NCBI GenBank assembly: GCA_030704615.1
Contig: CM060734.1
Location: forward strand, 35,278,001 to 35,342,000
From: Takakia lepidozioides
Lineage: Eukaryota; Plantae; Bryophyta
DNA: 64,000 nt
Reading direction: 5' to 3'
Below are positions 6,085-43,760 of the stretch, piece by piece. A program made the translations under genes and the position numbers. Under the pieces are notes generated by a model. It ran no database searches and was not told where the DNA came from. It worked only from the letters and a program-made list of their open reading frames with translations. How positions within the stretch are numbered: position 1 is the first letter of the stretch; each line of letters begins with the position of its first letter.

Positions 6085-6465
6085 CTTTCTCTCTTTTTAA
6101 TGTGAATTATGGGTTCAGTCCCTTTTCCCAATCTCGTGCTTTCTTGCTACTTTGTTTCCATTCGAAGTACACATATTTGCCGAAATGCCTAGAGACTAAA
6201 ACGTCAACTGGATTGTCCCCTCGTATCTATCTGGATGCTAGCATTTGAGTTGGAGCCTGTAGCCATGACCTTTCAAGAAAATGTGCAAGAGAAAGAATAA
6301 CCAAGACGTGTAGAATGAAGAAGTGGGAAAAAATGAATGATCGTATTAGTTCAAACATATTATTGTCATGTATACTACCTATTGTCAATTAAACATGCAC
6401 TTTATCATAAACATGTTTGATTTCAACAGCGAACAGAAAAAGGTGGAAGGCTGGAAGGAAGACAC

Positions 6466-14810: not shown

Positions 14811-16128
14811 TCGACTCATCCCCATAATGAACACTTGGAAACCAGGGTCACCATCCCCAATTCAAAAGCCAGGGCAACCTGTAAACAATATGAAAATAAG
14901 TCTACTCGCCCATTACGCCATGGTTGAATCATAGCCTGGCCACATAGATGCGGGCCCGTTGGGTGGACACATAGTTGCTCCACGCAGGCCCGCGACGTTG
15001 CTTGTTGTGGCCACACAGGCTGCAGTCCCACAATGCGTTGAATAAGTGACAAGCTGTTAGATGCCAGGAACGAAGGTCGACCTGTCAACCAGTTCGGAAC
15101 AACAGACCGCTAGAATATCGTCGAACTGACAGTTGCAGGTTAAATGGAGCAGGCTCGCGTGCATGAAGATAATCCAGGATTAGGGATTTAGCACAGGGGC
15201 GTGGACAAGGCAAGATGGTTGGAGTGGAGATGATGGTGTACAGGCGCCTGGAGCAGATCTGCATGGGCATGAAATCTGATCGTAGCACGGCGTGGTGGCT
15301 GGGTGGACCGGATGCTGTAACCGGTGCTGTGCTTATATAGCTGTAGGTTGATGTTGGAATAGACGTCACTGGCCTTTGGTGGCTTGCAGCAGCAGGGGAC
15401 TGTGATTTCTCTTTTGTATAGAGTGATGGTGTAAATCCTGTGACTAAGGTTTCATCAAGAGTTGATTTGAAGAGGGATAGTTTAGATCTGATTCCAGTCA
15501 CTGTTTGGAACAAGAAAGGTTCGTTTGAAGATTTGTGAATACGCTTCCGTGAAGAACTAGGCTGAACGATCGTTGATTGGAGTGATCTCTGTTACGATTA
15601 TAGAATTGTGACTGGAATAAGAGAAGCTGGTTACATGAGGTCCATACTGTTGTGGATTCAAGCAAGGAGTCTTATTGGGATTATTATAAATTCCCTGTGA
15701 ATAGCAATATAAACAAAGCGCCTGAAATCGGTCATAGTTGGACTGAAGAAAAGGAGTTAGAACCTTTTCACAAGCCATGAGTGATTGAGATGGTGTGTAA
15801 TCCAACGGCCCACAATATTTCACTATCTCACTCTTCCTCGCGCATAGTTACACAGCTGTGCAGCACGTTATCTCTTTGAACGTTGTGATGGTGTCGATTA
15901 GTATTGTGTTCCTCTCTGTGTCTTTGAACAATGGACCCTATAGAATTTTCAAGGTTGTCGCCTCTTTTTGCAACAGATGCAGATTATATTTTATTATGTA
16001 CGGTAGTAATGAGTGATTATATGCAGAAGAGACGTAGGTGAGAGTGGTGGAAACTTCCCCGTTCTAATCACAATTAGAGAACAATTCACAATGATGTTTG
16101 GCATTTTAGTCCTTAGGTTAGAAATGCC

Positions 16129-17128
16129 ATGTGGTTGGAAACATACAGGATGAAATATGCAGCATTTGGAAGGCTCTGCAATTTATTAACACATTTCATT
16201 CAAAGGCAATCAACAAATTGGACAAAGCCAATCGAAATTGATAAAGCAGTTGATATGGTTTTGCACAAGCTGACATTAGGGTACTCCACTAGGATCGTGA
16301 CCAATCTGTTCTGTGTTGGCCGCAATACTATGTACTTGTATACCAAGCTTATCACCGAGTGTCTATCTAATAAATATATCTTGTACTCACAATTTGTTAG
16401 CATACCTGAAGGAGAACGATTAGAATTTGTTACACATGGATTCTTGGAGGTTACAAGTTTGCCTAATCTATGTGGAGCTATGTTAGACGGCATCCGCATT
16501 AAGTTGGCTGAAAAACCAAACCTGATTTACGTGCCACCGGACTATTGGAATAGACATGATCACCATAGTGTACAGCCACAACTACATGTTCTGGGATGCA
16601 TGTGTTAGTGCATCTGGAGGCACTCATGATGCAACACATTTTCGAACATCTTCATTGTATCGCAAATTAATGAGTAGATAAATACTCCAACATCATATGT
16701 TGACAATTTCAGGAGTTCGAATTCATCCTTATATTGTTGGAGATTATGCCTATCTTCTACTCATCAATTTGACAAAAGCTTACGAGTTAGCTAGGGTGTG
16801 TAGCCCAGACAAGGACGCATATGATAGAAATTTGCGCAAAGCTAGAGTAAGAATAGAAAATTCTTTTGGACAACTGAAGAACAGATGGAGGTTGTTGAAG
16901 CGCTTGAATTTCATAAATCCATATGCCGCTCAAATTATCTTGGCATGTGTTGCTTTACACAATTTCTACAAGATGTGTGGAGAAGAACCATTGGATAACT
17001 TCAATACCTGTGATTTGCATTGCGAGAGTAGTTTTAAGCCCAATGTAAGGATCATGAATTGGGTAGGAGCACGGGGGTCGCAAATCAGCTGCAACAAGTC
17101 CAAAGACTTCATTGTGACTTGTTCCTGA
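16129..17128 (+). pseudogene. PIF/Harbinger (HARBI1-like DDE) transposase, frameshifted
   Basis: CGAMLDG, YWNRH..HS, GGTHD, YIVGDYAY, ARVRIENSFGQLKNRWRLL motifs across two broken ORFs. Confidence 0.88.
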
Positions 17129-18420: not shown

Positions 18421-20624
18421 CTAATGAATCATCGTTGTGGCATAACAATACCTTTCACATGAAAGACTGAAAGAAAACTTAAGACATGTGCATTATACGC
18501 TTTTAGGTAATACTTTCATACAAAGAGTTTCTCATTTGCATCACATCTTGCTCCATGTGTTTAGTCTTGCACCGTATTTCAAAGTTTCATATAGTCATCT
18601 TAGATTCCTACAAGCACTAAGAAAAATCATCATGTCCAAATAAAAAGCAAACTAAATCTATTACACCTGCTGCCTGCAAGGTCGACGCCTCCTCCTGCTT
18701 CCGTAACGAACGTACTCTACCCGTTGGTGGATTTTTTTCAAGAATTACTTGGTGACTTTCTAGTACTCTCACAAAGACGTAAATGAAAATGACGCATGAC
18801 ACGTGGAAGTCTATGATATGATACGAGCTTCCCAGAACGTACGTTAGGCAGCATAACAAAGTTCTCTTTGCGATGGAGAATTGGGTTGTGCGGATGCGGG
18901 GGCTGCAGTGTAGAGATGCTTTGACAACGCTGCGCGCCGAGGCCCCACGTTATGGGAGCTGCGTTTCACGAACGTGTATGGCCTATGTGGCCTTGACATC
19001 AGCTCAAATTGAATGGAATCAACAAACAAAATTCACTATGATATGGGAGCAAAAGATGCAATGGGGAGCATTCAATGAGTGGAGATTTAGAGGATATCAT
19101 GAGATATGTGAGTGTCAGATACAAACAGTTTTAAGCACGTGAGTTAGTCTGTGTTATACCACCACATTTATTACCCCAAAGTGGACAAATCCCTACAACT
19201 TATAGGTCATCTTTGAAGATGAAATTTCTCACTCATAAATATGTATAGCGGCCCCAGCTCCCACGGGCCAGCTTCTACTCTCGAATGTTTGAGGTTCTAT
19301 TTCTAATTTTTCCTATTCACTATCCGCCTACAGTCACTAGGTACCTACCTCTCTGTGTTGTTCTTGTGCTATGGTTTAGCTATGTACATTTTTGCTTGTT
19401 CGTTTCTACCTCGTAGCCTCTCGTTTGCTTGTACATTGTTTCTCGGTATTAAAGCCTCTTATTGAGGTTCCAAGTTTACATTTTTAAGGGGGCTCTTAGC
19501 CCACGGACTCTCTCTTCCCTTACCATCTTATGCGTTTAATATTCTTCTCATCCTCTTAGTTTTGGTCACGAAGTAGTGTAAGGTGGAGGCCCAAGGAACC
19601 CTCTAGAGTTTTATTGGCTCATCTTTATTCTGAAGAAGAGACTATGCATCAGTGTCAAAATTTGCTAACCCCCCGTTATGCCTTCCCAAGGTGTAACATC
19701 TTTTCCTCTATTGAAAACTACTTTGATGTGTAACATGACCTCTCTCATGTAACATCTCATTACTGGAAATAAATGGATGAATTTCTAAGTTTACTATGGA
19801 TGAAAATAGGTTCCACATTTCACAAGGAATGACTAGCCGCTTGCATAGAAAATATTAAAATAAATATCAATATCTTGGTAGTAAAGCCTTCAAGATGGCT
19901 TTTAGAGGCTTCTAGAAGCTGCTTTTCATCTTTATCAATCTGTTTGGGCACAACTTTTCATTTATACAAACACATGTCGTCATTTTCGTCCGGCCTTAGA
20001 CTACTTGTGTTTAGGAGGGTTGTTAGGTTGTGTTTCAGTTTTTTCCGTCTTTTCTTGGACCATATATGATTAACTTACAACCTTTGCCAGGTTAAGTTTT
20101 TCTTATTAAGAAAAATTTGATTCGAGAGCCAATGTTTGTATAGGTTAGGACATATCATTGTGACTCTATTATGTCATCATACTTTATAATAATATAATTT
20201 ATACAAATCCAGGGTCATTCCCTAAATATTGACTATCTTCTATTGTATTGTATCTATAAATAATCTATATACAGTCGACCCTGCTTTAATGTTAGGCCTC
20301 TAGAGTATGAATTTTCTAACAAATACCCAGGTATCACATATAATCAATTTACAAGAGACAGAGTAAACGAGGTCATGCCAATGAAATATAACATTTATTC
20401 ATTGAGTAGGTTGAAAATATGAAAGAATGTCGGTTTGTTGACAAGTAGAATGCCTAGCTAAAATCGCTTCCTTATGGATTGCTAAGAACTTCATAAGACA
20501 AGCACTAGTATCGTTGTTTTGCTACAAGATATAAATGTAAAGTGTCAATGAACCTCATGAATGGATGAATGGATGCTCTATTTTGGGGATGTCTCTTTCT
20601 AGAATCTAACTACTACGGAGGTGC

Positions 20625-20711
20625 TGTCGTGCGCATACATATCGCTACACAACTACATCGCTGTCCAAACCACACCACACATATATGCACAATAAAGTAG
20701 TCTGCCACAAT
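20625..20711 (-). repeat. Repeat B, terminal copy (U3-start segment of the LTR)
   Basis: Identical to 21056-21142. Confidence 0.95.
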
Positions 20712-21053
20712 AAACCCACGAACACACTGTTTACACAAAACATGAAAACCAAACCATCACTCTTAGAAATAGTAGTCGAGCCAGGGGCACCCCAAGCTAT
20801 GGGGACTCCACCCCACAACAACCTACACTCCCATCATGAGTACACTCAGAACTAAACGCATGCAGGAGCTCGGTCGCGCAGGCTCAACTCGAGAAAGATG
20901 AGCCGCGCGACTGCCGCTCTCGTGAAGATAAGACGGACCAGGTGTCAAACTAAACTTGATACCTGATTAAACACTTGACCTAAATCCAAGTGTTAAATAC
21001 AAATAATTAGTTTTATTCTAGCTGTTTTCACACTGTGCTTATTTAACTTGACA
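20712..21053 (-). repeat. Repeat A, 3' copy (rest of U3 plus R-U5)
   Basis: 342 bp with 4 mismatches versus 32272-32613. Confidence 0.95.
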
Positions 21054-21055
21054 GC

Positions 21056-21142
21056 TGTCGTGCGCATACATATCGCTACACAACTACATCGCTGTCCAAA
21101 CCACACCACACATATATGCACAATAAAGTAGTCTGCCACAAT
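21056..21142 (-). repeat. Repeat B, internal copy, following the PPT
   Basis: Identical to 20625-20711; joined to A through palindrome GACAGCTGTC (21050-21059). Confidence 0.95.
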
Positions 21143-21152
21143 CGCCCCCCTA
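21143..21152 (-). other. Polypurine tract
   Basis: Minus strand TAGGGGGGCG immediately before AT-TGTGG, the start of B. Confidence 0.7.
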
Positions 21153-21400
21153 GCTGGTGGATAGGTCCCTCTACCTCCAGATAGCTACAAGATGTAATAG
21201 CCACAGCCGTACTAAGTCCTCTATCACTGTCCATATTGTACTCAAACTCTATAGACCAAGAGGCCGGGTACAAGAGTAGCCCCATCGTTAGTCGCCATCT
21301 TGCAATCTGTGAACTTGAGCCAGGACCTCGTGTGTTCAAGGTCTCCTAGTAGCTGGGCTTTGCGTTTCTTGTTAGCCTTCCATGGTTGTATCCACTCCCA

Positions 21401-21715
21401 CTATCCAATGCAATGTGGACATAACCAATCCCCATCCGGAACCATCTCAAGAGGTGGAGTCAAGCATCCCATATGCCAACCTCTAGAGCATCGATCGCAC
21501 ACCAGCATGGTGGCTGCCCCTTTAGCAGACCCACACAACATGCACCTCAAACCTGCAGATACCACTACCAGGTTTGGGTCAATCCTGCCATCAACATTCG
21601 GAAGGTGACATGGCGCACAATTACGCACATGGTCCTTCCAAGTTATGCCATCCCGACCCTCCAAGACCAAGACGCCTGAGGCAAGACCTCTCGAACCCTC
21701 AAAATAACACGTCAT
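21401..21715 (-). CDS. Integrase C-terminal PHD finger (frameshifted segment of pol)
   Basis: CMLC...MLVCDRCSRGWHMGCLTPPL..VPDGDWLCPHC, a C4HC3 PHD. Confidence 0.92.
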   Translation of the reverse strand: MTCYFEGSRGLASGVLVLEGRDGITWKDHVRNCAPCHLPNVDGRIDPNLVVVSAGLRCMLCGSAKGAATMLVCDRCSRGWHMGCLTPPLEMVPDGDWLCPHCIG

Positions 21716-21900
21716 GCAGTCACATCCAAGGTCGTAGGAGCAGTCTGCTGCAGATAGACATAGTCACCAGGGTTGAATCTCCGAACCCCAGGACGATAGC
21801 CCCCACCACGTATGGTAGCATACCTCAACGTATCACGGTGTTGTGCAATGGCAAGGTTCTCGAAAGCCATGGGCATGACTCTCTTGAACAACTCTGCACG

Positions 21901-23051
21901 CTACTCACATGCACGTGCCCACACGTCCGGATCGTCAAGGTTAAGAACTGTAGCAGCTTCTCTGCGAATGGATGTAGGCAAATCCGGCTCTCGGCCAAAG
22001 AGAAGAAAGTATGGTGAGAAGGAGGCAAGTGATGCTTGCTTGCTGAACCTGTAGCCCATGGCTAACCAGGGTAACTGAAGGTCCCAATCTCCTAGGTGTC
22101 CGTTCTGCAAGCCATACTTGCGCAAACCCCTCTTTACTGTCTGAACAACTCTCTCTGCCAAGCCATCGGCTTCAGGATGATCCCGAGAAGTGGTGCGGTG
22201 GTCTATCAAGGCCTTGTCACACAAAGCCTGAAACTCCCCCAAGAACTCTCTCCCTTGGTCCGTGAGTACCTCAGCTGGAGCACCGAATCGGCTAAGCACA
22301 CAATCCAGGAATGCATACGCAGCTCCCTCACTAGCCTTATCAGGCAATGGAACCAATTCAATCCACTTGGAGAAGTGCTCCACCATCACCAACACGTACT
22401 TGTTGTGGCGCATGGTCAGTGGCAACGGCCCTGCGAAGTCAAGACTCCACCTGTAGCCCAATCCATGATCGGAAGAGGGTGCAATTGTGGAGTAGGGGCG
22501 TTGAATGAAGCACACACCCTGTCACACACCATGCACCTAGCCACAAATTGTTGCACCTCTGTGTGCATACCACGCCACCAATACTGCCCCTGCAGTAGAC
22601 TATGAGTGCGTCGCACCCCAAAATGCCCCAACTCCTCATGGGCATGCCGCACTAACCGTGCCCGCTGTGTTGGGTGAGGCACAATCCTCACTCGACCATC
22701 CTCCCACACTCGGAGCAGGTGTGTCCCCTCCCACCTGAACCTCTTGGCTCGTTGTAGGATCCGATCCCTCTCCTTGGCAGTCATAGTGGCTGCCGTGTCT
22801 CCACTGCGGAGGTAGTCCAACACAACTGAATCCTCATGTATATCTTTGGCGCCACCCTGCTCATTGCTGGCCTCAGGGTCCTCAGACACTTGATCTACAG
22901 TCATCCCTGTTGTAGGTCCAACCTGGCCTTCCGCTGCCAAGATACACAGAAATGCAGATGCATGCCATCCAGGCACCATCTCCTCGTCCGTCTCACCATG
23001 CCACCGAGCTCCAGTGTCATCCTGCTGGCTCGTGCATGGATTGCGACTCAA
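21901..23051 (-). CDS. Integrase: HHCC zinc-binding domain plus rve DDE core (frameshifted)
   Basis: HEELGHFG...YWWRGM...CMVC; WSLDFAGPLP, VLTDQGREF, HPEADGLAER. Confidence 0.93.
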
Positions 23052-24373
23052 CCCATCTGCATTTGATTGACCAAACCCGGTCGATGCACCACCTGAAAGT
23101 CATACTCTTGAAGGATGAGTGCCCACCGTGCAAGCTTCCCCGTAAGCTTGTCTGACTCCATCAACCACTTGAGTGGTTGGTGATCCGTGACAAGGGTGAA
23201 GAGATTGCCGTATAGATAGCACCTGAAGTGTGCCACGGCCCACACTGCAGCTAAGCATTCTCCCTCATATGAGCTATACTTAGACTCTGCAGCATTGTTC
23301 GAGCGGCTAGCATAAGCCACTACAAACTCTCTTCCCTCATCATCCACCTGTGTGAGCACCGCTCCAAGCCCCAACATGCTCCAATCTGTATGCAGCTGAA
23401 AAGGACGCCCCCTGATAGGTCGTCTCAAGATGGGCGCCGAGGTCAACCTCGCCTTGAGCTCTTGAAAAGCTTGTTCTTGCTCATCTTCCCACTGCCACTC
23501 CTGGTCCACCTTGGTCAGCTTGGTTAGAGCCTTTGCAATGGCACTAAATCCCTTAACAAACCGTCTGTAATAGTTTGCTAACCCCATGAAAGCTCGAACT
23601 CGGCTCACATCCGTGGGGCGTGGAACCTGTGCAATGGACTCTACCTTAGTCTGCTGTACCCCCAATCCTCCAGGATATATCATGTGACCCAGATACTCAA
23701 TCTGGTTGTGGAAAAACTTGCACTTGCCCGGATGTAACTTCAATCCGTGCGTCCTCAAGCGCTCAAATACCCCCTGAAGGTGTCTCTCATGCTCCTCCAC
23801 CGTAGCACTAAAGATGATGATGTCATCTATGTAGCACCGAGCAAACTCCACCCCTGCTAGAATCCTGTCCATGACTCTTTGAAACTCAGCGGGAGCGTTT
23901 TTAAGCCCAAATGGTAAGAACCGCCACTGGTATAGGCAATCCTTCCCGTGCTCATTGATCCCCCAGAATGCCGTCTTTTGCTTATCCGCCTCCTTGATCG
24001 GCAACTGGTGATATCCGGATCGTAAATCCAACGTGCTAAAGACCTTGGAATGCCCAATGGCATCAAAGATCTCCTCTGGTGTTGGCATGGCATACCTATC
24101 GGACTTGGTCTGACGATTTACAGGCCGGTAATCACCGCACATACGTCTCTCCGTCCAATTGCCATAGACATCCTTCTTAGCTGGCATCACTGTGGCTGAA
24201 GCATACTCTCCACCAGAGAGCTCCACCAAACCTGCCTCCCAGAGATCTTGAGTCCTCATCTGAATCAAAGACCTCTCCATGTCACTGTATCTATAGGGTC
24301 TCCGAAAGATTGGCGTGTCAGTGGCCAACTCAATACGGATCTCTTGACCCTTCAGTGCTCCCAAGTCCTTCAA
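23048..24373 (-). CDS. Reverse transcriptase and RNase H (gypsy type)
   Basis: RMCGDYR, LDLRSGYHQ, LPFGLKNAP, YIDD, TDWS, YSSYEGECLA, TDHQPL. Confidence 0.97.
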   Translation of the reverse strand: MKDLGALKGQEIRIELATDTPIFRRPYRYSDMERSLIQMRTQDLWEAGLVELSGGEYASATVMPAKKDVYGNWTERRMCGDYRPVNRQTKSDRYAMPTPEEIFDAIGHSKVFSTLDLRSGYHQLPIKEADKQKTAFWGINEHGKDCLYQWRFLPFGLKNAPAEFQRVMDRILAGVEFARCYIDDIIIFSATVEEHERHLQGVFERLRTHGLKLHPGKCKFFHNQIEYLGHMIYPGGLGVQQTKVESIAQVPRPTDVSRVRAFMGLANYYRRFVKGFSAIAKALTKLTKVDQEWQWEDEQEQAFQELKARLTSAPILRRPIRGRPFQLHTDWSMLGLGAVLTQVDDEGREFVVAYASRSNNAAESKYSSYEGECLAAVWAVAHFRCYLYGNLFTLVTDHQPLKWLMESDKLTGKLARWALILQEYDFQVVHRPGLVNQMQMG

Positions 24374-24402
24374 ACTGAAGGCAAAGCAATTCCTGTAAGC
24401 CC

Positions 24403-26181
24403 TCAGGAACCGCCGTATACGTCGTCTCTCTCCTCCGGTGACAATGGGTCCAATGTCAGGCTCCCAATTGTCCTCCGTAACTGCAACCTTAAGTCCAGTG
24501 GGCTTAGAGGTAGAGGACGCGTCCCGTGGTTGCTATGCTGCAACCTCTTGAGCAGTACCCCTTCCTGCTCAGTCAATGACAAGGCCTCATCCTGCCCCAT
24601 CATCTCATCATTGAGAACCTCCTCATCCCGAGAAGAATCCCCAACCTCATCCATCACAGCTGCCTTCGCTGCCAACTCCCTCTGAACCTCGAGCACCTCC
24701 CACGTGTGCCATGGATGTCTACACCTCGTGGTCCTCACCGGCTCGCCCCCACTCGCTGCCTGTACCGTCTCGGTAGGCAGAGAGACCGTCAAGGGAAGTG
24801 CACTCCGCACTCTACGTTGCTCAGCCATAGCCAAGCTGACAATCCAGGTCAAGCAATTGAGATCCATTGCTTGCCCCAACACCTGACGACGTGATGCCTC
24901 AGAAAGAGAAGGCACCGCCGTGGTCCCAGTGGAAAACCCCATAGCCCGCTCTCGCTCGTCGGCATTAGGCTCCACTAACTGCTGCAACTGAGCATCCCAC
25001 AGGAGGCCAGGTCCACCATCCCGAAAAGCATGGGATCCTGGGAAGCTGAGCAGTGTAGGTAATGCTGCTCGTGGTTGACCCACCCTGTTGACCACTGCCA
25101 AAGGCGAACGGTCATCGTGTCTCACACGTTGAGACTGCCTTCCTGTGTCCAAAATGCCATCCACGGTGAGGTGTGCTGGCCGCTGCACCCCATCAAATGC
25201 ACGCTTGAGCAGTGCGGGTGGCATCAAGTTAGTCCACCATAGTCGTGGACGATGAGCCCGTGACCCCACTGCAGCTGCATCCAGCAATACTGCTGACCCA
25301 AGCCACGACCGGACTTGATGCACACTGGCCATCACCCTGGCCCGAGAATCACCCATCAGTGGTACATTCTCCAAGATGTATGCTGGAGATACAGCTTGAT
25401 GAAGCTGCAAGCAGCGCAAAATCCGCACCATCTCCCAAAACAGACCCGTCCTCGAGTCTCGCAATCCATTGCCATGCCCGGCTGATGAATGCCCTTGGCA
25501 GGGCCAACCTGCCACTATCAGATCAATGGAGCCAACCTGCTCCAAATCTTGCGCCCCCAACAAGAAAATGTCTGCTGGCAAGGCTTGTTGGTATCCACGA
25601 ACTGCAGACACAGGCAACAAGTCAGGGTACTGCTGTACCAACTGAGCCACATGGCGCAGTGAGACGCGTCGTGCAGTCTCATCCCTCTCCACATACAGGT
25701 AACGCCTTACCCGCACACCTGCCTGTAGCACAGCAGCCAATCCGGTGCTGATCCCGCCAAACAAGTCCAGAAGGCAAATGCCTTCATCCGGCCGCTGCCA
25801 CACAAGAGGTGTGGTGTCCAATGGCGACAACTGAGGTGGCCCTGGTGCAATCACCGCACTCTCCTCCTCTCCTGACGGTACAAAAGCTTCTACCCAAGCT
25901 TGTTGCACCCGTCCATCAGCAGCTTGCTGCAAATCCTTGCTCGTACCCCACAACGGAGTGTGAGCAACCATGGCAGGCAACTCCGCCGTACCATGCATGT
26001 CATCCTGCTCTGCTGGAGGTGGCACATCCTCTGCATGGGCATTGCCTTCCAGCAACTCTCCAGGCCAACTAACTGCAGCTGTGAAGGCGGCTAGTGTTGG
26101 CATTTGCCCCGCTGGGCAGCTGCAATACCCCCAATGAATGTCACAGGGAGCTGTGCACGGCGACCATCCCCTGACTGCCAT
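24403..26181 (-). CDS. DNMT3-like C5 cytosine DNA methyltransferase domain within pol (domain ~24832-25779)
   Basis: Motif I LDLFGGI, II YVE, IV AGWPCQ (catalytic Cys), VI ENV, VIII AHRPRLWWTNL, IX ERERAMGF, X RRQVLGQAM, in canonical order in one open frame. Confidence 0.93.
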   Translation of the reverse strand: MAVRGWSPCTAPCDIHWGYCSCPAGQMPTLAAFTAAVSWPGELLEGNAHAEDVPPPAEQDDMHGTAELPAMVAHTPLWGTSKDLQQAADGRVQQAWVEAFVPSGEEESAVIAPGPPQLSPLDTTPLVWQRPDEGICLLDLFGGISTGLAAVLQAGVRVRRYLYVERDETARRVSLRHVAQLVQQYPDLLPVSAVRGYQQALPADIFLLGAQDLEQVGSIDLIVAGWPCQGHSSAGHGNGLRDSRTGLFWEMVRILRCLQLHQAVSPAYILENVPLMGDSRARVMASVHQVRSWLGSAVLLDAAAVGSRAHRPRLWWTNLMPPALLKRAFDGVQRPAHLTVDGILDTGRQSQRVRHDDRSPLAVVNRVGQPRAALPTLLSFPGSHAFRDGGPGLLWDAQLQQLVEPNADERERAMGFSTGTTAVPSLSEASRRQVLGQAMDLNCLTWIVSLAMAEQRRVRSALPLTVSLPTETVQAASGGEPVRTTRCRHPWHTWEVLEVQRELAAKAAVMDEVGDSSRDEEVLNDEMMGQDEALSLTEQEGVLLKRLQHSNHGTRPLPLSPLDLRLQLRRTIGSLTLDPLSPEERDDVYGGS

Positions 26182-26837
26182 CCAGGCCTGTAGGATGCTG
26201 ACTCCTCCCAGAAATCCAGGGTGAAGCCCATGGGGTATAACACTGCCCCACCAACGAGGACATCGTAAGAGACCGCGTCTGTCACAATGGCCTTGGCTCG
26301 CATCACTGAGCCATCTACAGGATGATCCGGCTGCAGTCTAATAGCCAACTGATGCCGTGTCATGCCGCGAGCCTGCTCTGATCCTCCCAGAGATGTCTGT
26401 ATCTGGAAAGGACAAGGCTCCATATCCGCCTCCATGAGGCCCAAACCTGCAATAGCAGCTCTGCCCAACATCAGTGGCTGAGCTCCTGAGTCCAACAAGA
26501 CCCGCAGTGGCCGGTACTTCTTGCCTGCCGGTCCACTCAAAGTGAAAATGCCTCCCTGGTTGTCTAACAAGACAACTCCAGGTGTCACCATGGCGCGCTC
26601 AATGGCTGGCCTAGCTGGCAGCTCCGTCAACCTGGCAGCTGCAACTTGCCATGGCGCAGCCGTGGCAGTCTTGACCCTCAAATCCGAGGATCCCTCTGCC
26701 ACTATACCTTCCACTAACTCCGCAGAAGATGAAGTGACCTCCCCACTCTCACAGAGAGTTGCTGCTAGTCTGAACACTGCAGCTGGTCTCACCCCCGCGT
26801 CGCAATCATGGTTGCCGAGAACAGTGGGGCTTGACAC
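26091..26837 (-). CDS. Retropepsin aspartic protease segment of pol
   Basis: RVLLDSGAQ active site and YDVLVG motif. Confidence 0.88.
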   Translation of the reverse strand: MSSPTVLGNHDCDAGVRPAAVFRLAATLCESGEVTSSSAELVEGIVAEGSSDLRVKTATAAPWQVAAARLTELPARPAIERAMVTPGVVLLDNQGGIFTLSGPAGKKYRPLRVLLDSGAQPLMLGRAAIAGLGLMEADMEPCPFQIQTSLGGSEQARGMTRHQLAIRLQPDHPVDGSVMRAKAIVTDAVSYDVLVGGAVLYPMGFTLDFWEESASYRPGWQSGDGRRAQLPVTFIGGIAAAQRGKCQH

Positions 26838-27231
26838 ACAGAGGTGGCTGCCCCCAATAACACACCGGCTGCACTAGCCTTGGTAGCAGGTGTCAGTGCT
26901 GCACGTGTAGCTCTCCCCAATGGCATAGTAACCTCCGCCTCGGTAACAGTCGGGCGAGAACTAGGTGCCATGGATGGCGTTGACACTGTCTCCGCCAAGG
27001 TGAATGACTGAGGCAGCCTCGCCTGACGGCTTGCCTCCCCACGTTGTGGATCCAACTCCACCTCTGCACCTCGTGGCTCAGGAACTCGTGCTGCTCCTCG
27101 AGTCACGGCTGCAGCAGACTCCACCTGCTCTAGTGGTAGTGCTGCTCCGCACATGAATCCCATGCCTCCCATATCTCCTCCCTCAGGAGCAGGAGGTGGA
27201 CCATCCCGCCTGGGAGCCGGTACCGCCTGAG

Positions 27232-28710
27232 CTATACCATGGCAGCGAGCCTCTGCTCTAGCTGCTGAAGCCGATTGGCCATGCCTTGGTCAACACCCTG
27301 ACCTCCGCGTCCTTGGCCATGTGGAGCTTGCCCTTGGCCTGCACCTCGTGCCCGACCACCTCGTCCTCTTTGGGCTGGTCCACCTCGCCCCCGGCCACCA
27401 TTGTTCCCTTGGAACTGGCCTGGGCGCAACTCAGGATGCAAGTCATAACACTGGGCATCTACATGCCCATACTTGCCACAATGCCCACACTGCAACTGTG
27501 CAGGCTGTGCTTGTGCCGGCCTTCTGCCATTCTCTGGGCAATCTCTTTGTCCAACATATCACCCCTGGTTGCTGTTGGCCTGCAAAAGATGCCACGGGCC
27601 TCTGCACCTGAGGTCCCCTGTAAGCTCCATGGAACTTGGGCTGGGCAACCTTGCCCCCCTGACCACGCTGTTGGGCAGTCCCTTGTGCCTGTGGGCTGAC
27701 AGCTGTGCCCCGTACAGGCATGTCCTTGCCAAATCCAATTGTAACAACTCGCTCCTCCACCATGTTGAGCTCAATCCGCTCAGCCAGCAGAAACACATCT
27801 GCTAATGTGGGTTGGGCTGCTTGTAACAGGGTTGCATCTCGCACCCTTCTCTTGAGCTCCTTGTCCAGAATTCCATACCAAAACTGGATTGCCTGAGCTT
27901 CAGTAACCCCTTGGGTCACACTTATCAAGCGCCTCATACGAGTGTACGCCTCTCGCAGGCTCTCACTGGGTTTGCGCTGGAAGTCTTGCAAACTTCGCAG
28001 CTTCTCTGTCCGTACACCTTGGTAGTTCCTCCGCAACTCCTGGAAGAACTCCACCACCGGGTTGAATCTAGGCACATGTGTTGTAGTTGTGGCAGGAGGA
28101 GTAGTAGCACCTTTTGAACTGGTACCACCTGCAGAAGTACCAGCACTACCTGCTCCACTACTAGTGCTGGCAGTGGGAGCTATTGGTACTGATGCAGCTA
28201 CTGGTCGCGTCGTGCCTCGAGTAATGGAGACGTAGTCAGGTGACCAATACATCCTCCACTCCTCAATCTCTGCTTCATGTCCTCGCCTGAACTCGTGGTA
28301 ATCGTCCATAGGCGGGCCTTCCAAATGCTGGAACAGTCCCTTCCACGCCATGAATGGGGTGAATAGCTGTGGATTGCGCATCTGCTGCAAATCACACCAG
28401 CTGTCGAACTCCTGGATAAAGTCATCCAACTCGATTGTGCCCACAGCTCCAGAGTACCTACGAGGCCCCTTGGTAGCTCCATACATCTCCTCCATGTCGT
28501 CCCACAACAATGGCGAATGAAAGTGCACACCTGTTGATGAAGCCTCCGAGTTGTGTCTGACTCTACAGTAATTGAGGGTGGCGGTGAAGGTGGTCTGAAC
28601 CGAATACCTCGTCTTGTGAACCCACTCTCACTGTTACTGCCTGTAGCCGTACTCCCCTCAACACCCTTGGGTAACTCCGTAATGACACTCACAATGTGCA
28701 CCTCCTCCAC
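27232..28710 (-). CDS. Gag with CCHC zinc knuckle (several frameshifts)
   Basis: Capsid-like FQRKPSESLREAYTRMRRL; CGHCGKYGHVDAQC followed by an RG-rich tract. Confidence 0.8.
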
Positions 28711-30487
28711 GTGACACTATAAGGCTCTAGTACTAATCTAATAGTGACACGGGTGGGCACCTGTTGCAGTTTAAGGGTCATATCCCAATGGCTCAGGGCA
28801 CCTGCACCTGCATCCACCGCAAGAACTCCTATGGTTGGCTGGTCATCAACCCAGCCTCACCATAGAAGAAACACTGGTGGTCTTGCTGGTCATCACTCCA
28901 GCCTCACCACCGACAGCATACTCTAGGATTGACCGGTGATCAAATCCGGCCTAATCCCTATGAAAGCAAGCGCCCACACAAAACCAACATGGCGCACAGT
29001 CAAGCATGCAGGTGTTGGGGGGGATCCAAACACAAGAAATCAAAACATCAACACCCCCACACCAAAATCCAGCTGCAATGCTGATCCTGCAGAATATCCC
29101 AGCCCAAAACCCCGGACTGACTGGCCTCCACCAAGAGAGGCTTTGGCAACTACAAGTACAAGGTAATGAAAATAGTACAGAGATGGAGGGGAAGAATAGA
29201 AGCCCGACCAAGCAAGATCTAATCCTGATCTATGCTATCAACTGCCAGACTTCTCTCAAAGTGCCTCGCTCTGCATGATGGTAAGGTGTAGGAGGTATAT
29301 CTATGTCCAGAAACCTGCCACTAACCTTGTCCCAAGCTACAGTAGCTCGCTCTAACCAACCCTCCTCCTCTTTCTGCCAGGTAGAGACAAAGCAATACTC
29401 CCCTATCTCCCGCTCACTGAACACTAAAGAAAACAAAGGTAGGGTCTGATAGTCTCTCCACTCGAAAGCTTTGAGACGGTTGCGGGTGTCCTCATTGCGA
29501 ATGATTGCATCCCCTTCAGATAGAACAAACTTGTTCTCGGTAATGAACCCCCGCTCGTGGTTGCCTTGTGCAGAGCGTGTCCGGCTGCAACGCTGTCTGA
29601 TTGCACAAACTTGTGTAGCTCCTGCTCCTCTACTCCAGTACACCACGGCCTTGTGGCTGAACACCTTGGTCCCCGGGGCTGTCTTTGGCTGTGTTCCAAG
29701 CCTAGCTTTCACCCACTTTGGTATTCACCTACAGCTGCAGAACTGCTGGCTCCAACAGAGTTCTGACTGTCCAAGGCGATATTGAGGCCCTCAATGCCAA
29801 CTACAACAGTCTGTTGTCTACTGCTAATGCCTGACTCCCAGTATGCAATCAACTCGTCCAACTGTTCTCCACTCAAATCAGTCTGAGTTCCTTGGGAAAC
29901 ATAAATCCTGTCCCCTTGTGTGCACAGACTAAGAGAAGAGACCTGCCCTTCAATTACGTCCTCATTTCCCCCAGCCATGCAAGGAGTACATCCACCAATT
30001 TGTCTCTCATATAGACCAGAACAGGTTCTAGAAACAGGATTGTGGATCTTTCATGGCACACTCACACTCTAAAAATTCCATAGATTTTTAGCAGAGTCCC
30101 AAAAACAAAAACCAGGTCTAGGTAGGTAGATTCCCCCTTTCTGCAGCTATCCCCTCAAAAATTGTGTCAAACGGAGTTCATTTGCCAAAGATATGACCAA
30201 TTAGGCTCTAAATCCTTTAACTTAGATCAAAAGGGTTTTTTTCTTTTCTTTTCTTTTCTTTTTCTTTTTCTTTTTCTTTTCAAATTTAAAAATTCAAATG
30301 AAGGTGAGAAGCTCTTTGGAAACTTCCCCTATCCTTACATGCTTTTCCACCTGGGTCATGCTTTCTCCCTGCAGGGGTGGAATTTGCATATGCTTATCAG
30401 CGTTGGAGAGGGCGGCAAGAGCGGACGTACTGATTGCGGGCGTACAGAGCTGAAGGATGGGCTTTAGGGGCTATGGCGGCTGTCTCA

Positions 30488-30761
<274 letters not shown>

Positions 30762-32046
30762 AGGATCTGGACTGATCAAGGAGTCGTTTCTCCAGAATGT
30801 GACCCAGTCGAAACTATGTGGTTTGCTGTTGCAATGATGGAAGTGAGAGAGCTCGGAAGAAGCTTCACGAATTCGGCTTCAGGGACGAAATCGCTGACAA
30901 CTCGAGCATTTCTGTCTCTCTTGTGTTTGTGACTGCAAACTCTACATCTTGCCAGGATGATCCGAAACGGAGTGATCTTACCACCCGGCTCTGCTCAGCT
31001 CTCCGAAAGCCTGTTAGATAATAGAAGCCAGGAAACCTAGAACCTTCACTCCAAAACTTCTTGACTGAATATCGGTGGAACTAGGTAGAGTGCACGCTGC
31101 GTGTGGAAAGGGGCGGGAAGGTTGGTAACAGTAGCAACTCGGAATAGAAAGGGCAGCACGTCGCGCGCCATAGATTTCTAGACGGGCCACCTTCTCTTCC
31201 ACTTTCACCGCACATAATCTCCAGCCTGGCGATTCAATTCGAGATCTTGGCTGCAAGACTTGCCGGTACCGAGCTTAACGCTTCTCAAGTGATGTCACCC
31301 GTTGAGTGAGCTCGGCAACTTCCATGGCCTGAACGTTGCCACTGTGCAAGTTAGCTGGGGAGGTGGCGTGCAAGTCAATGACGAACAACCCGGTGAGGAC
31401 ATTTTCCTGCCTTTTCCTCCCCCTTCCCTCCTCGCTTCGGCGTCCTTTCAATGTACTAAGCTAGTGAGCCATGGCCAGAACTAACACCTCCAGTTTGATC
31501 ACCCTTTGCACCTCTGCTCCCCGCATTTCTCTCCACTACTTTGAAGAGTCCACACCCGCATCTTTATACCGGAAGCTGGCCTTTCAACAAACACACAACC
31601 CAACTAAGGCATCTGAAAGCAAGATCGGGAAGAGCACATCGAAACTCTCCACGTACAAGCCGGGGTCCTCCAGATTCCATGCCCGTACCACCTACTTCCC
31701 CAGCAACGAAACCAGACCCTCTTCAAGCTCTACATCATCGTCTTCAAAGTACCGCAGGCCTGGCCGTCACCTGCTCCAAAACTTGTAGACAGCTTTTCCC
31801 AAGCACTGGCCTCCTTTCCTAGAAAACTCAGATGCCCACACTCTTCTCCACATTGGCGAATTGGGCCTTCAACATACAAATGTGACTTTTAACTCCCAAA
31901 ATGTATGGGCCTGAGCAGCTCTCCAGCTATCCCTTTCACTCCAGGCACTTTGTATTCATCCTAGGGACGTTGTGGTAGTGCAGATATCAGCGTTCACAGC
32001 TTGCCAGTGCTGCTCCATGCTGCATTTTTAAGTCTCTCCTTGTGTA

Positions 32047-32175
32047 CTCCAAAGCCTCTGGTGACTTGGTAGCTTCAGCAACTGTAATAACAGTGGCGGC
32101 TCCGGCATCGTCATCCTCCAGGCGTTTCAGGGCACGCTGAATCTTGTGGTCACATTCAATGATATGCTTCTCAAA
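32047..32175 (-). pseudogene. LUC7: Captured fragment of a LUC7-like splicing factor
   Basis: HIIECDHKIQRALKRLEDDDAGAATVITVAEATKSPEALE resembles plant LUC7-like LIVECDRKIGRALKRLQEEDAKAAIAISVSEVTQSPEILE (from memory). Confidence 0.75.
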
Positions 32176-32250
32176 CTAAGCACTACTTACACATAGGTAA
32201 TCTTGCAAGTGCTAACCCTCAACTCCTACCTTGCACTCACAGGTAAGAGA

Positions 32251-32265
32251 TCATCTTTCTCGAGT
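32251..32265 (-). other. Putative self-priming PBS, complementary to 32447-32461 inside repeat A
   Basis: 15-bp perfect inverted repeat ACTCGAGAAAGATGA; no tRNA-type TGG PBS at this position. Confidence 0.7.
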
Positions 32266-32271
32266 GATAGA

Positions 32272-32613
32272 AAACCCACGAACACACTGTTTACACAAAA
32301 CATGAAAACCAAACCATCACTCTTAGAAATAGTAGTCGAGCCAGGGGCACCCCAAGCTATGGGGACTCCACCCCACAACAACCTACACTCCCATCATGAG
32401 TACACTAAGATCTAAACGCATGCAGGAGCTCGGTCGCGCAGGCTCAACTCGAGAAAGATGAGCCGCGCGACTGCCGCTCTCGTGAAGATAAGACGGACCA
32501 GGTGTCAAACTAAACTTGACACCTGATTTAACACTTGACCTAAATCCAAGTGTTAAATACAAATAATTAGTTTTATTCTAGCTGTTTTCACACTGTGCTT
32601 ATTTAACTTGACA
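32272..32613 (-). repeat. Repeat A, 5' terminal copy
   Basis: Direct repeat of 20712-21053; begins TGTCAAG on the minus strand and continues ...TTTTCTATCA to 32265. Confidence 0.95.
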
Positions 32614-32759
32614 GTGCGTTAACACCATGAAGAGTAGGATAAAATAACAATTAACCACTTAATACTCTTCACATGGTTTCTAGTATTATTTGTGCAGAGT
32701 ATAAAAATAACATTTAGAGTGAAATAACACATAAGTAGGTAACAGTAAAACAAGGTTGA

Positions 32760-32816: not shown

Positions 32817-34542
32817 TTGAATTAAAATAAACTCGCCCACATAGCCAAACTATGTGTAAGTATGATCTACATCAGGCAATAGGAATTGATGCTATAATAC
32901 AAAATAGGAGACCAATATGTAGCGCGTCTAGGGAATTAGGTTGGTGTTGTTGAGTATTGTGGTATTGTGGCCTTGCCCATGACAATGTCTCGATTGGCCC
33001 AGGGGGCTTACTTGTACAACGTTGTCTTACAAAAGTGAATAGTGTTCTTTTACAAAAAAGAAGATGAGTGTTTGGTTGTTCGTGGTTGTGAGGCTTGGGC
33101 ATATGTAGCTTGTAATTTCGCAAGAAAAAATTAATATGCTTGAAGTAAAACACATCGAAAAGATTGTCCAAGTACACCTTTATTCAATGTAGAGAACACT
33201 TTTGTTTTTGGACATTTTTGATTGGTCCAAATTTTTGGGGGGAGTAGCAGTGGGATGCTTGAAGGAGTTATGGACTCTATAGTGATGAAGGTGCGTAAAG
33301 TGGGGAGAATGATGTCTAGGCGCAAGATGGAGAGATGAAATGTGGCTATGGTGGCGGTTGTGACTAAGGCCGTTGGTAGGAGCTAAATAGGGAATCCCTA
33401 TATTGATAAGGAACAGATAAATGTGAGAAAGGTGAGGTGGAAGTAGCAGGGCACTAAAGTAGTGGATAGTAGAGGTTTTAGCAGTGAGGTGCATTAGGAG
33501 GCACGGAAGAGGAGTGCTCTGCCCCCCAACATCGACGCTTTAGTTGGCGTAATATGGCTCAAAGGGATATGATTTCATGGAATGCTATGGTAACAAGATG
33601 TGCTCAATATGGATGTGGGAGGAAGGTCCCACAACTTTTTGAACAAATGGAACATGAGGGCTTGAAGTGCTTCAAGCCAATGATGCTACATTGTGAGCCC
33701 AGGCCGTGAGCCTGCTAGCCTAGGTTCACGCTTTCCACATGGCAAGCGTACGAGGATATCTATACCTATGGGAAAAAAATACCCAACCCCCCCCCCACCC
33801 CTGCAGATGATTGTAGAACAATCAAGAATAGGAGCTCTAGTGGGAATAGGACTAGCTCTAGTGTTAGGAGCTTCAAGAACGTGAAGGGTTGAAAGTTGAA
33901 GGCCCCAACTTGGCCTTGTAATACAGTTGTTACAAGGGAAGCGCCTGGCAGGCCCACAGTGATCCTTGGAAACTGTTTGCTCTTTGAGTCACGCTCCATT
34001 CATGCCTGCCATGGAACCCAGTTCGTCACACGGCACTGCTTTTGTCGTCCTGCTGCCAAGTGCACGGAAGCTCCTCTCCATCTTTCCTTCCTTCATACTC
34101 GTGTGGTCGCACTGCGATTCTGCGCAGCATTAAACCAGAAAGAGATCATGTTACTTGTGCTTACTATATCATGCATACGTGGATAAACCTTCTAAAATTG
34201 CTCTCTCCAGTATGTAAATCAAATGATCACCTCATCGGCTCAGAAGTATCGTCTTCGGCAATCTTTCGTGGTGACCAGTACAGTTGGAGGTGGAGGTCTT
34301 GGGGCAGCGGACAACGTGACATCCATGCCCCGAGTCTCTTTAAGAGATACAGCTTCCCTACGGCAGTTTCCCACTTCCACTGGTCAGTTTCCTCATTGTG
34401 GGTCTTTCAAATTTTCGAGACACTAGGCACTCATGACCAAGTAAAGCTTCTTCCATATAACGATGGTCTTAAGAAAGTCTGCAATGAGCCAGTCCCCTTG
34501 TAATCAACAGTTGCTAGTATTTTTTCTGACCGAGGATTCAGA

Positions 34543-37259
34543 ATGATATTCAAAGCAAGTGTAGGCGCACAGTTTACTATCACTGTTCTCATTTGCTCAC
34601 TGACACACCTCCTGATCACGTTCCCTCTAATCGCAGCAGAGGTAGTGAGCAGTACACTAGGAAGCATCGTACAGCTCAGAATTGAGACAGACGTAAATTC
34701 AATTCATTGTGGTGCTAATATGGGATATGATGCACAATTCACTGATCAATGTAGTGTTGGGAAAGGAGCAGGTTCTGAAAAAGAGACTAGAGATACCAGT
34801 ATAATACTAGTTGACCAGGACGGATATGGAGACTACACCACTGTCCAGGCCGCAGTAGATGCTGTGCCCGACAACAATTCTGCACGAATAACTATCCGAA
34901 TTAACGAGGGCACTTTCTTGTGAGTTCGTGCATGCATTGAATATTTTCGTGCCTTTGCTCATGTCGATCTACTGCAAAGCGTCATAAATTGCCATATTTT
35001 CGTGCCGCTGTTTCAAAACCTTTTCTTTCTTCCAGCAGCTAGACACTGTCTATAGAAATCCTGTAGCGTGAAATTCAATTTTCCTTGAATCTATGAACAC
35101 AGGGAGAAAGTCCGTGTTACAGAAAGAAAACGCTACGTAACGCTCCTGGGAGCAGGGAGGGAGGCGACGACAATTTCCTGGCACGACAACGTCAACTCAA
35201 CTGGCCACCTAGAAGAGAGTGCATCTGTGGCTGTCTATGCTGATAACTTTATAGCAAACTTCATAACCTTCAAGGTACTCTCAGGGGAGGATAGAAACAC
35301 GAAGATAAACATTTATATGTACAGTAATCTGAGACCACTTCGCAGCTTCAGTGCAGTATATTAATTAAAAAAACACAGTGTCCCACCCATTGCTGGAGCA
35401 TATGTACATAGAGATGTACGTGTGACAGTTGAAAGAAGTGAAGGACTTAGTTAATTCGTGCTCAATGATCTAGTCACCTCCCTGGTTTTCATTATTTGCT
35501 CAGTGGAGCGCACTCTCAGCGCACTAGAATTGTCTGTGCATTGTGAATGTTTGAACAAGCGGAGGTTCGGTTTTAATTTTATGCAGCTGTCTAATTGCCA
35601 GTTCATTGAGACGTAATTGAATGAAATGTCGAGGGCTATGTAACCATGTCATTGCTCAAGAAGTTGGAATGTTTCATGCAGAATACGGCCCCACGACCTT
35701 CCCCAGAGATAGTAGGAGCTCAAGCAGTCGCCTTTCTGATATCTGGGGATATGGCCGCTTTTTATGGCTGTGGCTTCTATGGCGCACAAGATACTCTGTA
35801 TGATAAAAGTGGACGTCACTACTTCCAGGACTGCTACATCGAAGGAGAAATCGACTTTATTTTCGGGAATGGACGGTCTTTGTATGAGGTAATCTGAGTG
35901 TTTCCGTGAACTAGAAGATGTACATATCGAATCAGTCCACGTTTAACTTCTATCTTGAAGAAGAACGCTGCGCATGCATCCCTCATGCATCCAATCGATA
36001 AGTATAAAATGTTCTCTGGACATTATCACATGAGCGTACAGTACTTGGACGGCTCCAAGCAAAACATAATCTCGAATTGATCTGAATGCGTAAATAGAAG
36101 AACCTACAACGATCCTCTTTTAACTTCCGTCCCTGTCCACTGGATGAGACTGGATGTTGGAAACCAGATTACATAGAAGCACAGGGTCTAAATCATGCTC
36201 AAGTTGCGTTCAGAGAGGTTCCTGTGAAACTATGTACACGCACAGACTTGCATTCTACAGTACTGGAAGCATCCTCCAGTCAGCCCATCCACCACAGCGT
36301 GCATCAATTTGCTCTGTCTTCCTATTCATCATAACACAGGAAATCTCTGTAACTCATTTGCAGCCGACGTAGCTCTATATCCCGAGAGATGTTCCTGTAG
36401 TTGCTAGCCACCTCAGGGATTATCACGTTCCCTCTTTTATTCCTAGAACGTTCACCATATGAGAGAACCTGTTTTAATGTACTCAAGGAAGAACTTCACA
36501 CGTCCGCGCAAGGCCCAGACGACCCAAAGGGCGAAGCTCGTAACAATAAAAACCCCAATAAAGCAGTTTCGTAACTCACACTGGTCTCGGATCAGCACTA
36601 GATTGAAAACGCTATAAGTGGCCTTAAATCTTCGCATCGAGGAGGAACCCCCAATGATACAACCCTTTAACGGACCTTCTCAGGTTGGTTTGTGATCTCG
36701 GTTCTTGGAGTTTTGCAGCAATGCCTGATAAATTCAACTGCCCTAACAACCGGATACATCACAGCTCAAAAACGCGAATATGAGAGTGAAAATACCGGTT
36801 ACTCCTTTGTGGAGTGCACGATAGAGGGAACGGGATCAAACGTGCTACTTGGGCGGGCATGGGGCCCTTCAGCGCGCGTGGTGTACTCCAGCAGCTATCT
36901 GCCTGACATAATTGCCCCCCGGGGATGGAGTGACTGGGACAACTCCAGTGCAGATTTGTACGTACATTTCTAGCAGCTCTTCATGTTGTTGTCGACAGAA
37001 TCTTCTTTGTGTGCACACCTTAAATTGTAGAACTGAGGTGGGTTTTTCTAAGTAACAATACATTTCGATACCAACATATCTTGTGTGATGCAATTGCTTA
37101 TACATGCACAGGACTATATTCTATGCGGAGTACAATAACAGGGGCCCAGGTGCCGATATGAGACAGCGGGTCACCTACGCTAAGGCCCTCACAGAAGCCG
37201 AGGCCCAACCCTTCGTGGAACTAAGCTTCATCGATGGCAAGGACTGGCTCACGACATGA
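34543..37259 (+). CDS. Pectin methylesterase; exons 34543-34919, 35103-35274, 35682-35888, 36719-36957, 37112-37259
   Basis: [42 protein letters not shown]; same intron positions as the PME at 9021. Confidence 0.93.
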
Positions 37260-41409: not shown

Positions 41410-41447
41410 CTGGTCGTAGGTGGGGTCGTCGTTACTATACGGTCCTT

Positions 41448-41483
<36 letters not shown>

Positions 41484-43202: not shown

Positions 43203-43760
43203 ACCCTATAGAGCGACTGTTCATGAATTGCCAAAACAAAGTCGATGGAACCTTCAATACAGCGAATCTTGAAGTAATGGCGGCCACCTATGTCGGCACA
43301 CCGAGTCTTCTGGGAAGCATAGAATCCATAACTGCAGAAGGCTACCTGTCAACCGATAAGCAGCCTGATGCTGCAGTTTTGTTGTTGGTGGAGCGGGCAC
43401 TCGCTCCTCCGATTTCCTAGGATCCCAAGCTATTGGTCTTACGTAGATCTATGTACAATCAAGCAGGACTCCATTGAGCACTGAAACATTATGCAACCGG
43501 GCTTCTGAAGGAGAAGAGGGATGGAGAAAGGGGGCTGAGAGATAGCTAGTCCAAGAGCACCTAGGGAATTGTGCACTCATATGCAGTTGTATTCTATCTT
43601 ATATTATTCTGGTGGGGCAGGCGGCCACTGCAGTAAGACAACACAACCGTAGATAGAAACATTATCTTGAACGTGACATCTCCCTGGCAAGAAAGCTGGA
43701 AAACCCAGATTACTATGGAAGAGTCTCGCTCGTCGACAGTGAGAGTGACCAGTTGGAGCT
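43203..43760 (-). pseudogene. Pectin methylesterase pseudogene (exon 2-3 duplicate of the 38766-41409 gene)
   Basis: Degenerate [13 protein letters not shown] motif, plus intron sequence shared with ~40290-40440; indels and stops. Confidence 0.8.

Follow-up and report, generated by a model that had tools for sequence, protein, structure and literature searches.

A land-plant Ty3/gypsy retrotransposon with split repeats and a DNMT3-like cytosine methyltransferase

The element and its surroundings

The window, meaning the whole 64-kb stretch of DNA analyzed here, contains a retrotransposon on its minus strand (Table 1). Gag, protease, reverse transcriptase (RT), RNase H, and DDE integrase were found in Ty3/gypsy order, and the TG...CA ends and 4-bp target-site duplication are likewise those of Ty3/gypsy elements. 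However, the ends are not two complete direct LTRs; the repeats are split in an A-coding-B-A-B layout. A Pfam scan of nine frames detected no tyrosine recombinase, with rve and H2C2 domains present instead, and a PHD finger occupies the place after the integrase where chromoviruses have a chromodomain. The element is therefore gypsy by its proteins and atypical in its end structure. Window Gag was 58-61% identical to that of Marchantia relatives, and its knuckle was seen in the translation. No tRNA gene was found within the 64-kb window.

Table 1. Positions of the element, its repeats, and its predicted domains in the window.
Feature	Position	Strand	Basis
Whole retrotransposon, 11,989 bp, TGTC...GACA, A1-coding-B1-GC-A2-B2	20625..32613	-	repeats, ends, empty-site joint
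4-bp target-site duplication, 5' copy (3' copy at 20621-20624)	32614..32617	.	4 letters fit both joint sides
Repeat A1, 342 bp, 4 differences from A2	32272..32613	-	repeat comparison
15-nt stretch in A1 complementary to primer-site-like stretch; predicted self-primer	32447..32461	-	pairing
Primer-binding-site-like stretch immediately following A1, pairing with A1 and covarying among relatives	32251..32265	-	pairing
Copy-specific low-depth leader segment with uL2/L8 C-terminal pieces	30500..32190	-	depth, Pfam
Gag with CCHC-like knuckle, frame broken in this assembly	27230..28495	-	Retrotrans_gag E 7e-4, below cut-off
Aspartic protease region, LDSG at 26498	26110..26830	-	Pfam, relatives
DNMT3-like C5-cytosine methyltransferase domain, final domain of ORF1	24790..25815 (approx.)	-	Pfam, solved-structure matches, model
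Motif I	25773-25747	-	frame translation
Motif II	25701-25681	-	frame translation
Motif IV (WPCQ)	25533-25492	-	frame translation
Motif VI (ENV)	25380-25363	-	frame translation
Motif VIII (HRPRLWWTNL)	25254-25225	-	frame translation
Motif IX	24957-24934	-	frame translation
Motif X (RRQVLG)	24891-24859	-	frame translation
Predicted readthrough stop TAG + CAA CCA, between ORF1 and ORF2	24527..24535	-	locus comparison
Reverse transcriptase and RNase H, YIDD at 23833	23066..24532	-	RVT_1 E 9e-33, RT_RNaseH E 2e-36
Integrase, H2C2 zinc domain and DDE core	21904..23000	-	E 7e-16 and 1e-14
PHD finger, end of ORF2	21404..21545	-	PF00628 E 2e-11
G-rich polypurine-tract-like stretch directly before B1	21143..21152	-	locus comparison
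Repeat B1, 87 bp, identical to B2	21056..21142	-	repeat comparison
Palindromic B1/A2 junction GACA-GC-TGTC, predicted integrase cleavage site	21050..21059	.	locus comparison
Repeat A2	20712..21053	-	repeat comparison
Repeat B2, CA at end	20625..20711	-	repeat comparison

Contigs of runs X1, X2, and X4, all from one sample, join across the element and skip 11,993 bases, which reveals an empty allele in that sample. With 4 differences across the 342 bases of A1 and A2 and none between B1 and B2, the window copy is a young insertion. Summed contig depth in run X1 was about 1e4 on the element compared to about 10 in the unique leader, which shows that there are many copies, though depth is not usable as a copy number. 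The entire coding part, with the methyltransferase (DNMT), had high depth, which fell to background level only at 30500-32190. The DNMT was covered as deeply as RT across the family in two samples, and single contigs of two other organisms span the DNMT domain at approximately 93% identity. About eight frame breaks interrupt the window copy in this assembly. The runs involved, 2-4 long, do not bear out homopolymer error as the cause of these breaks, although all 12 of the length differences listed go in the same direction, one of them in the unique leader.

The leader at 30500-32190 contains intronless uL2/L8 pieces (Pfam E 1e-9 at 30488-30661 and 6e-5 at 30627-30878). The piece at 31990-32175 is presumably LUC7-like, for which Pfam gave no match. 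These scraps are an apparent transduction of host mRNA pieces. Two multi-copy leader frames of 164 and 113 aa at 29230-30050 (-) had neither a Pfam match nor a match to the relatives fetched, and are possibly a family-specific extra ORF.

The first-pass annotation had assigned the element to a land plant, and genes elsewhere in the window agree. A PLS/E-class PPR gene lies at 56324-59059 (+; 911 aa, 303-bp triplet periodicity) with best identities of at most 54%, to lycophyte, gymnosperm, and fern proteins. Pectinesterase exons at 34504-39826 lie on both strands, as two genes head to tail or inverted, with repeats at 35739-43361. Other mobile sequences were also present: a related-element relic at 48314-50547 (-), with the integrase end and PHD finger at approximately 70% DNA identity and in which the DNMT part was not found; a truncated conventional Ty3/gypsy element at 1833-6085, whose 728-bp direct repeats are 97% alike and which has a 598-aa frame covering Gag, protease, and the start of RT; and Harbinger-like DDE fragments at 16117-17128.

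The methyltransferase domain and its relatives

The C5-cytosine methyltransferase is carried by a minus-strand frame at 24403-26337 (644 aa), in which PF00145 was the sole Pfam domain. This profile, which the first-pass annotation had proposed as a check, matched above the cut-off (E 1.1e-12). The same annotation had described an unpermuted enzyme in a single open frame, and motifs I, II, IV, VI, VIII, IX, and X do run in canonical order in one frame from 25773 to 24859, without the rearranged order of DRM. Its placement between protease and RT also stood, but not its placement inside a continuous Pol, since an in-frame stop at 24535-24533 (-), conserved among relatives, parts the DNMT from RT. 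As gene ends, 26181 and 24403 were incorrect: relatives align in frame only from about 26103 and leave near 24557, and the interval overhangs because it takes in out-of-frame reads of the protease tail and RT start. The split repeats, the in-frame stop, and the PHD finger had been missed.

DNMT3A was the best sequence match among solved structures (E 1e-10), followed by DNMT3B, DRM-type enzymes (8e-6 to 7e-4), and HhaI (4e-4). The predicted structure of the domain, based on a 29-sequence alignment, had a pLDDT of 77.9 and a pTM of 0.82, with no structure for residues 232-268, and its top structural match was again DNMT3A (E 5e-16, TM 0.67). By similarity of sequence and modeled fold, the enzyme is of the DNMT3 type rather than DRM, as originally annotated. 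The DUF3444 domain and stand-alone gene layout of host plant DNMT3 were not found in the window frame. Ala and Glu occupy the positions that we take to be D876 and R882 of DNMT3A; oligomer and DNA contacts would therefore differ from those of DNMT3A.

The motif I Phe was kept in 68 of 68 sequences and the motif VI Glu in 76 of 82. Pro-Cys was kept in 78 of 78, a count that is biased because one of the two search patterns contained Pro-Cys. Judged from these alignments, the SAM-binding and catalytic motifs are preserved across relatives, so that the enzyme does not appear catalytically dead, an outcome that the first-pass annotation had named as fatal to its proposal. In dead copies, the catalytic residues had decayed by CpG-type changes. 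No element-specific CpG depletion was seen (0.44-0.57 for the element, compared to 0.55 for the window and 0.38 for the PPR gene).

Homology searches found 179 near-length and 73 longer homologues. Those with names came from Marchantia polymorpha, M. paleacea, Riccia, Calypogeia, three Sphagnum species, Closterium, and Chromochloris; no vascular plant name was among the homologues listed. Marchantia, Riccia, Calypogeia, and Sphagnum provided the close relatives, and Closterium and chlorophytes the more distant ones. A profile search gave 559 clusters with E below 1e-30, the best 150 of which were inspected. Among 331 proteins, the DNMT preceded RT in 14, including Closterium, and followed RNase H or RT in 66, including Scenedesmus. 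The DNMT tree, a quick version, and the RT tree, which took 42 of 70 rows, each parted the two architectures with an SH-aLRT of 99. The window DNMT grouped with liverwort and moss proteins, also with an SH-aLRT of 99. The domain thus sits in the same place in liverworts and mosses and was not confined to one copy, contrary to a second outcome that had been named as refuting.

The second architecture, RT-RNaseH-DNMT-integrase-PHD in one frame, was seen in proteins P0364, P0165, and P0169 and in locus L082 (122-9916). It includes Scenedesmus and groups with a Chromochloris protein, so DNMT-bearing Gypsy elements occur in chlorophytes. L082 also has an extra 713-aa frame behind pol (10033-12171). 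Three of 42 genome contigs were relatives (L081, L082, and L083, the last weak). L081 and L082, which are in cyanobacterial bins, are most likely eukaryotic strays. Viral contigs gave no relative among 23 pattern matches.

The dN/dS of the DNMT between L043 and three relatives was 0.14 (L043-L046), 0.12, and 0.08. Between the window and other families dS was saturated, with a dN of 0.22-0.28. Median identity across families was 63% for the DNMT, compared to 53% for protease and 56% for Gag. Within the window family, 21 of the 33 variants listed were synonymous, with 110 further variants beyond these. The decayed large family had a dN/dS of 0.52-0.81 for the DNMT and 0.45-0.58 for RT, which we read as post-insertion decay. 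Taken together, these sequence comparisons indicate that the DNMT domain is under purifying selection, which speaks against the neutral evolution raised earlier as a third ground for rejection.

The stop codon and the split repeats

ORF1 encodes Gag, protease, and DNMT, and RT-RNaseH-integrase-PHD follows in frame past the conserved stop. We surveyed this stop in the best 80 of 134 metagenome loci plus 3 genome loci, 53 of which contain both sides. TAR-CAR-YY in the RT frame was present in 48 of the 53; several loci re-assemble one genomic copy, though the motif is still common to at least 4 divergent families. The DNMT and RT shared one frame in 36 loci, none of which lacked a stop, and CAR-YY stood behind the stop in all 22 single-stop loci. 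Shuffled linkers gave the motif in 5%, in any frame. Strict CAR-YYA was found in the window and in L003, L043, L046, L048, and L081, with an unbroken 1047-aa ORF2 behind it in L043, L048, and L081. In L043, 1369 aa precede TAG CAG TTA. The motif was missing in L052 and L064. The large family has an imperfect CAA CCC and then an ATG two codons past the stop. The first ORF2 Met is at 85, 117, and 117 in the window, L043, and L081, respectively, inside the RT homology; L003 and L048 have an early Met. In most unbroken-looking relatives, ORF1 ended 60-130 residues past the DNMT, with ORF1 lengths of 1248-1281 aa in Marchantia and 1330-1451 aa in other relatives. For the named species, protein ends and loci that group with a Sphagnum protein are our basis for inferring the stop context and the repeats.

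ORF2 is likely made by readthrough of this conserved TAG-CAR-YY stop. UAG-CAR-YYA is the readthrough consensus of the tobacco mosaic virus (TMV) type, for which 6-10% readthrough has been reported in stable plants (PMC2754532). If readthrough occurs, there would be far more methyltransferase than RT, with the DNMT at Gag level. Such dosage is not needed throughout the clade, because the basal relatives P0475, P0477, and P0482 have protease, DNMT, and RT without a stop, and in 66 of the 80 proteins that contain both domains the DNMT comes after RT, within Pol.

The A-coding-B-A-B layout was also found in L059, L073, and L076, and partly in L005 and L018. Four complete loci (L016, L028, L033, and L039) stop at the first B. 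An exact 4-bp duplication was present in 6 of 7 complete loci. The middle of A pairs with the stretch after A1 over 15 nt in the window, 17 nt in L059 and L053, and 13 nt in L081; shuffles reached at most 12 nt. The letters of this stem differ between loci and covary, and a primer site that is complementary to the LTR and covaries is what self-priming predicts. The palindrome GACA-GC-TGTC was kept in L005, L018, L059, L048, L081, and the distant L082 of the second architecture, and an intact site lies inside every full copy. In all 4 copies of the large family, the A2/B2 join coincides precisely with the predicted DNA ends; the window join falls short of the predicted end by 6 nt. The mirror product, A-B-A-coding-B, was absent from 22 5' ends. 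A terminal overlap in L081 was considered as a real circle and rejected as an assembly loop. The tract, covarying stem, and palindrome together suggest that the element integrates from a 2-LTR circle cut open within one of its LTRs. Foamy virus integrase is reported to cleave palindromic LTR junctions (PMC1180852).

Interpretation and comparison with known systems

We consider it somewhat probable that the window holds a young copy of a land-plant Ty3/gypsy element in which stop readthrough keeps a particle-borne DNMT at Gag level, and that this enzyme is likely to methylate the element's own new DNA before integration. Ribosomes would read through TAG-CAR-YY at a few percent, as with the TMV signal, to give RT-RNaseH-integrase-PHD, and the protease would release the DNMT, which, being made at Gag level, would be packed into the particle. 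Self-primed reverse transcription would then produce linear DNA with two LTRs, each B+GC+A, whose ends would be joined into a 2-LTR circle. Integrase would open the circle at the GACA-GC-TGTC of the left LTR, giving A-coding-B-A-B with TG...CA ends and the 4-bp duplication. The DNMT would methylate this extrachromosomal DNA, and the most likely purpose is to camouflage it or to establish the chromatin state of the new copy; we favor action in cis because it most simply explains why a copy would retain a catalytic DNMT3. A more far-reaching version is tentative, and we doubt it more than we believe it: an ancient green-lineage Gypsy clade, still alive in land plants such as Marchantia, whose 2-LTR circle is opened by integrase within one LTR, with a Gag-level particle DNMT3 methylating the circle, possibly choosing which palindrome is cut and shielding resident ones, so that a self-methylated circular intermediate would be obligatory.

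An active enzyme could instead work once the element has integrated, or in trans, with the insertion site, resident copies, or host chromatin as its target, for example to hold down the activity of its own family or to protect the palindromes inside resident copies from integrase. Every full copy does retain the intact internal palindrome, Gag-level synthesis would yield surplus enzyme, and slowing of transposition and insertion-site chromatin are among the roles discussed in the parts of PMC5890265 available. We nevertheless regard this as unlikely, since selection on a copy-encoded enzyme would act most easily through cis action in the particle, and the ORF1 DNMT has no joined targeting domain, the PHD finger being in ORF2. 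Somewhat less probable again is that the domain is kept for binding and not for DNA methylation, as a nucleic-acid clamp or an RNA methylase in the particle. The altered interface residues and the absence of element-specific CpG loss are consistent with this, as is the finding that the Klebsormidium nitens domain did not methylate yeast DNA, a result that its authors call inconclusive (PMC5890265). However, the motif I Phe, Pro-Cys (with the search bias noted above), and motif VI Glu are kept, and de novo CG methylation is reported for the related SymbioDIRS-Dnmt3 domains (PMC5890265).

With the role of the methyltransferase unchanged, ORF2 could arise by reinitiation or splicing and the split repeats by DIRS/PAT-like copying without a ligated 2-LTR circle. 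The ATG past the stop in the large family and the early Met in L003 and L048 point toward reinitiation, and the missing mirror products and the four loci that end at the first B toward such copying. We find this about as improbable as the binding explanation, since strict CAR-YYA recurs in five loci from divergent families as well as in the window, with exact frame conservation, and the window, L043, and L081 lack an early Met. Moreover, in 4 of 4 copies the A2/B2 join is placed exactly where primer and tract would set the ends, and copies ending at the first B can arise by recombination, one-LTR circles, or assembly collapse. Finally, the host gene scraps in the leader and the broken frames of the window copy might suggest that a host DNMT3 was captured only once or without selection to keep it, or that the assembly is chimeric. 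This can practically be dismissed: DNMT coverage equals that of RT in two samples and single contigs span the domain in two other organisms, the domain has the same position in liverworts and mosses and is apparently under purifying selection, and the DNMT and RT trees both part the two architectures cleanly. Coverage, spread, selection, and trees together refute it. The particle-borne, cis-acting enzyme therefore remains our preferred reading.

Why retrotransposons keep a silencing enzyme has been a standing question since 2018, with the known cases in poorly tractable algae. The annotation of Marchantia polymorpha lists several 1280-aa Gag-protease-DNMT frames as hypothetical host genes, and these copies, together with existing methylation mutants, open the role of the enzyme to testing. 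From the conserved stop one can predict the enzyme dosage, and from the anatomy of the repeats a circular substrate for integration, which would be unusual among DDE-integrase retroelements. Split-repeat elements of this type will escape LTR finders, and counts of DNMT genes in seed-free plants may be wrong because of them.

Earlier descriptions of such elements are confined to algae; they are now found in land plants, including Marchantia. The first-pass annotation knew of no characterized land-plant case; likewise, neither such a case nor the readthrough was found in the open-access literature, where the supplements of PMC5890265, PMC12344493, and a 2026 preprint may include bryophytes. The accessible portions of 10.1101/363937, 10.1101/2021.11.30.470311, PMC11982613, PMC9516144, PMC12344493, PMC6673714, and PMC6317226 contained nothing on either. 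Later papers, in the text available, mention streptophyte retrotransposon DNMT3 without naming land plants. In one of these, streptophyte Gypsy-DNMT3 is a separate, earlier-described acquisition, with no land plant named in the available text (bioRxiv 10.64898/2026.05.21.726589).

The split repeats tie the window element to the Klebsormidium kind, which makes the capture itself less novel. KnitGypsy-Dnmt3 of K. nitens (de Mendoza et al. 2018) was described with Gypsy domains, DIRS-like repeats, and a DNMT in the Pol ORF (PMC5890265). As far as that description goes, it shares with the window Gypsy domains, an unrearranged, intronless Dnmt3-like domain with key residues, A-coding-B-A-B repeats, and purifying selection on the DNMT. 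However, its DNMT shares the Pol ORF with RT and RNase H, whereas a conserved stop lies between them in the window, and the window host is a land plant. Readthrough, self-priming, the junction palindrome, and the PHD finger are window features unmentioned for KnitGypsy-Dnmt3 in the accessible text (PMC5890265). No Klebsormidium name was among the relatives retrieved, and the likeness is by description, not by tree.

Methyltransferases are reported to recur in elements with circular intermediates (PMC3266345, PMC5890265). SymbioDIRS-Dnmt3 and DIRS/PAT elements, as outlined there, also combine a methyltransferase with split repeats or a circular intermediate, but use a tyrosine recombinase and, in the DIRS1-like case, make no target duplication, in contrast to the DDE integrase, TG...CA ends, and 4-bp duplication of the window. 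DAM-LTRs and EpiLTRs are also Ty3/gypsy elements with a methyltransferase and a chromatin reader, but are described with adenine or DNMT4-like enzymes and a chromodomain (10.64898/2026.05.21.726589). Among host enzymes, plant DNMT3 is of the same catalytic type but is reported with a C-terminal DUF3444, and DRM is rearranged, whereas the window domain is not (Yaari et al. 2019, PMC6453930). PHD fingers like that of the window are reported in green-lineage Gypsy elements, in REM1 and in the algal Gypsy-7a_cRei, for which the available text lists no methyltransferase (PMC9940879). Tf1/Sushi and Tcn1 are cited as self-priming precedents (PMC6317226). TMV provides the readthrough precedent, with the window stop coming after Gag-protease-DNMT (PMC2754532), and foamy virus integrase is described as cleaving at the LTR-LTR join, whereas the window palindrome lies inside the LTR (PMC1180852).
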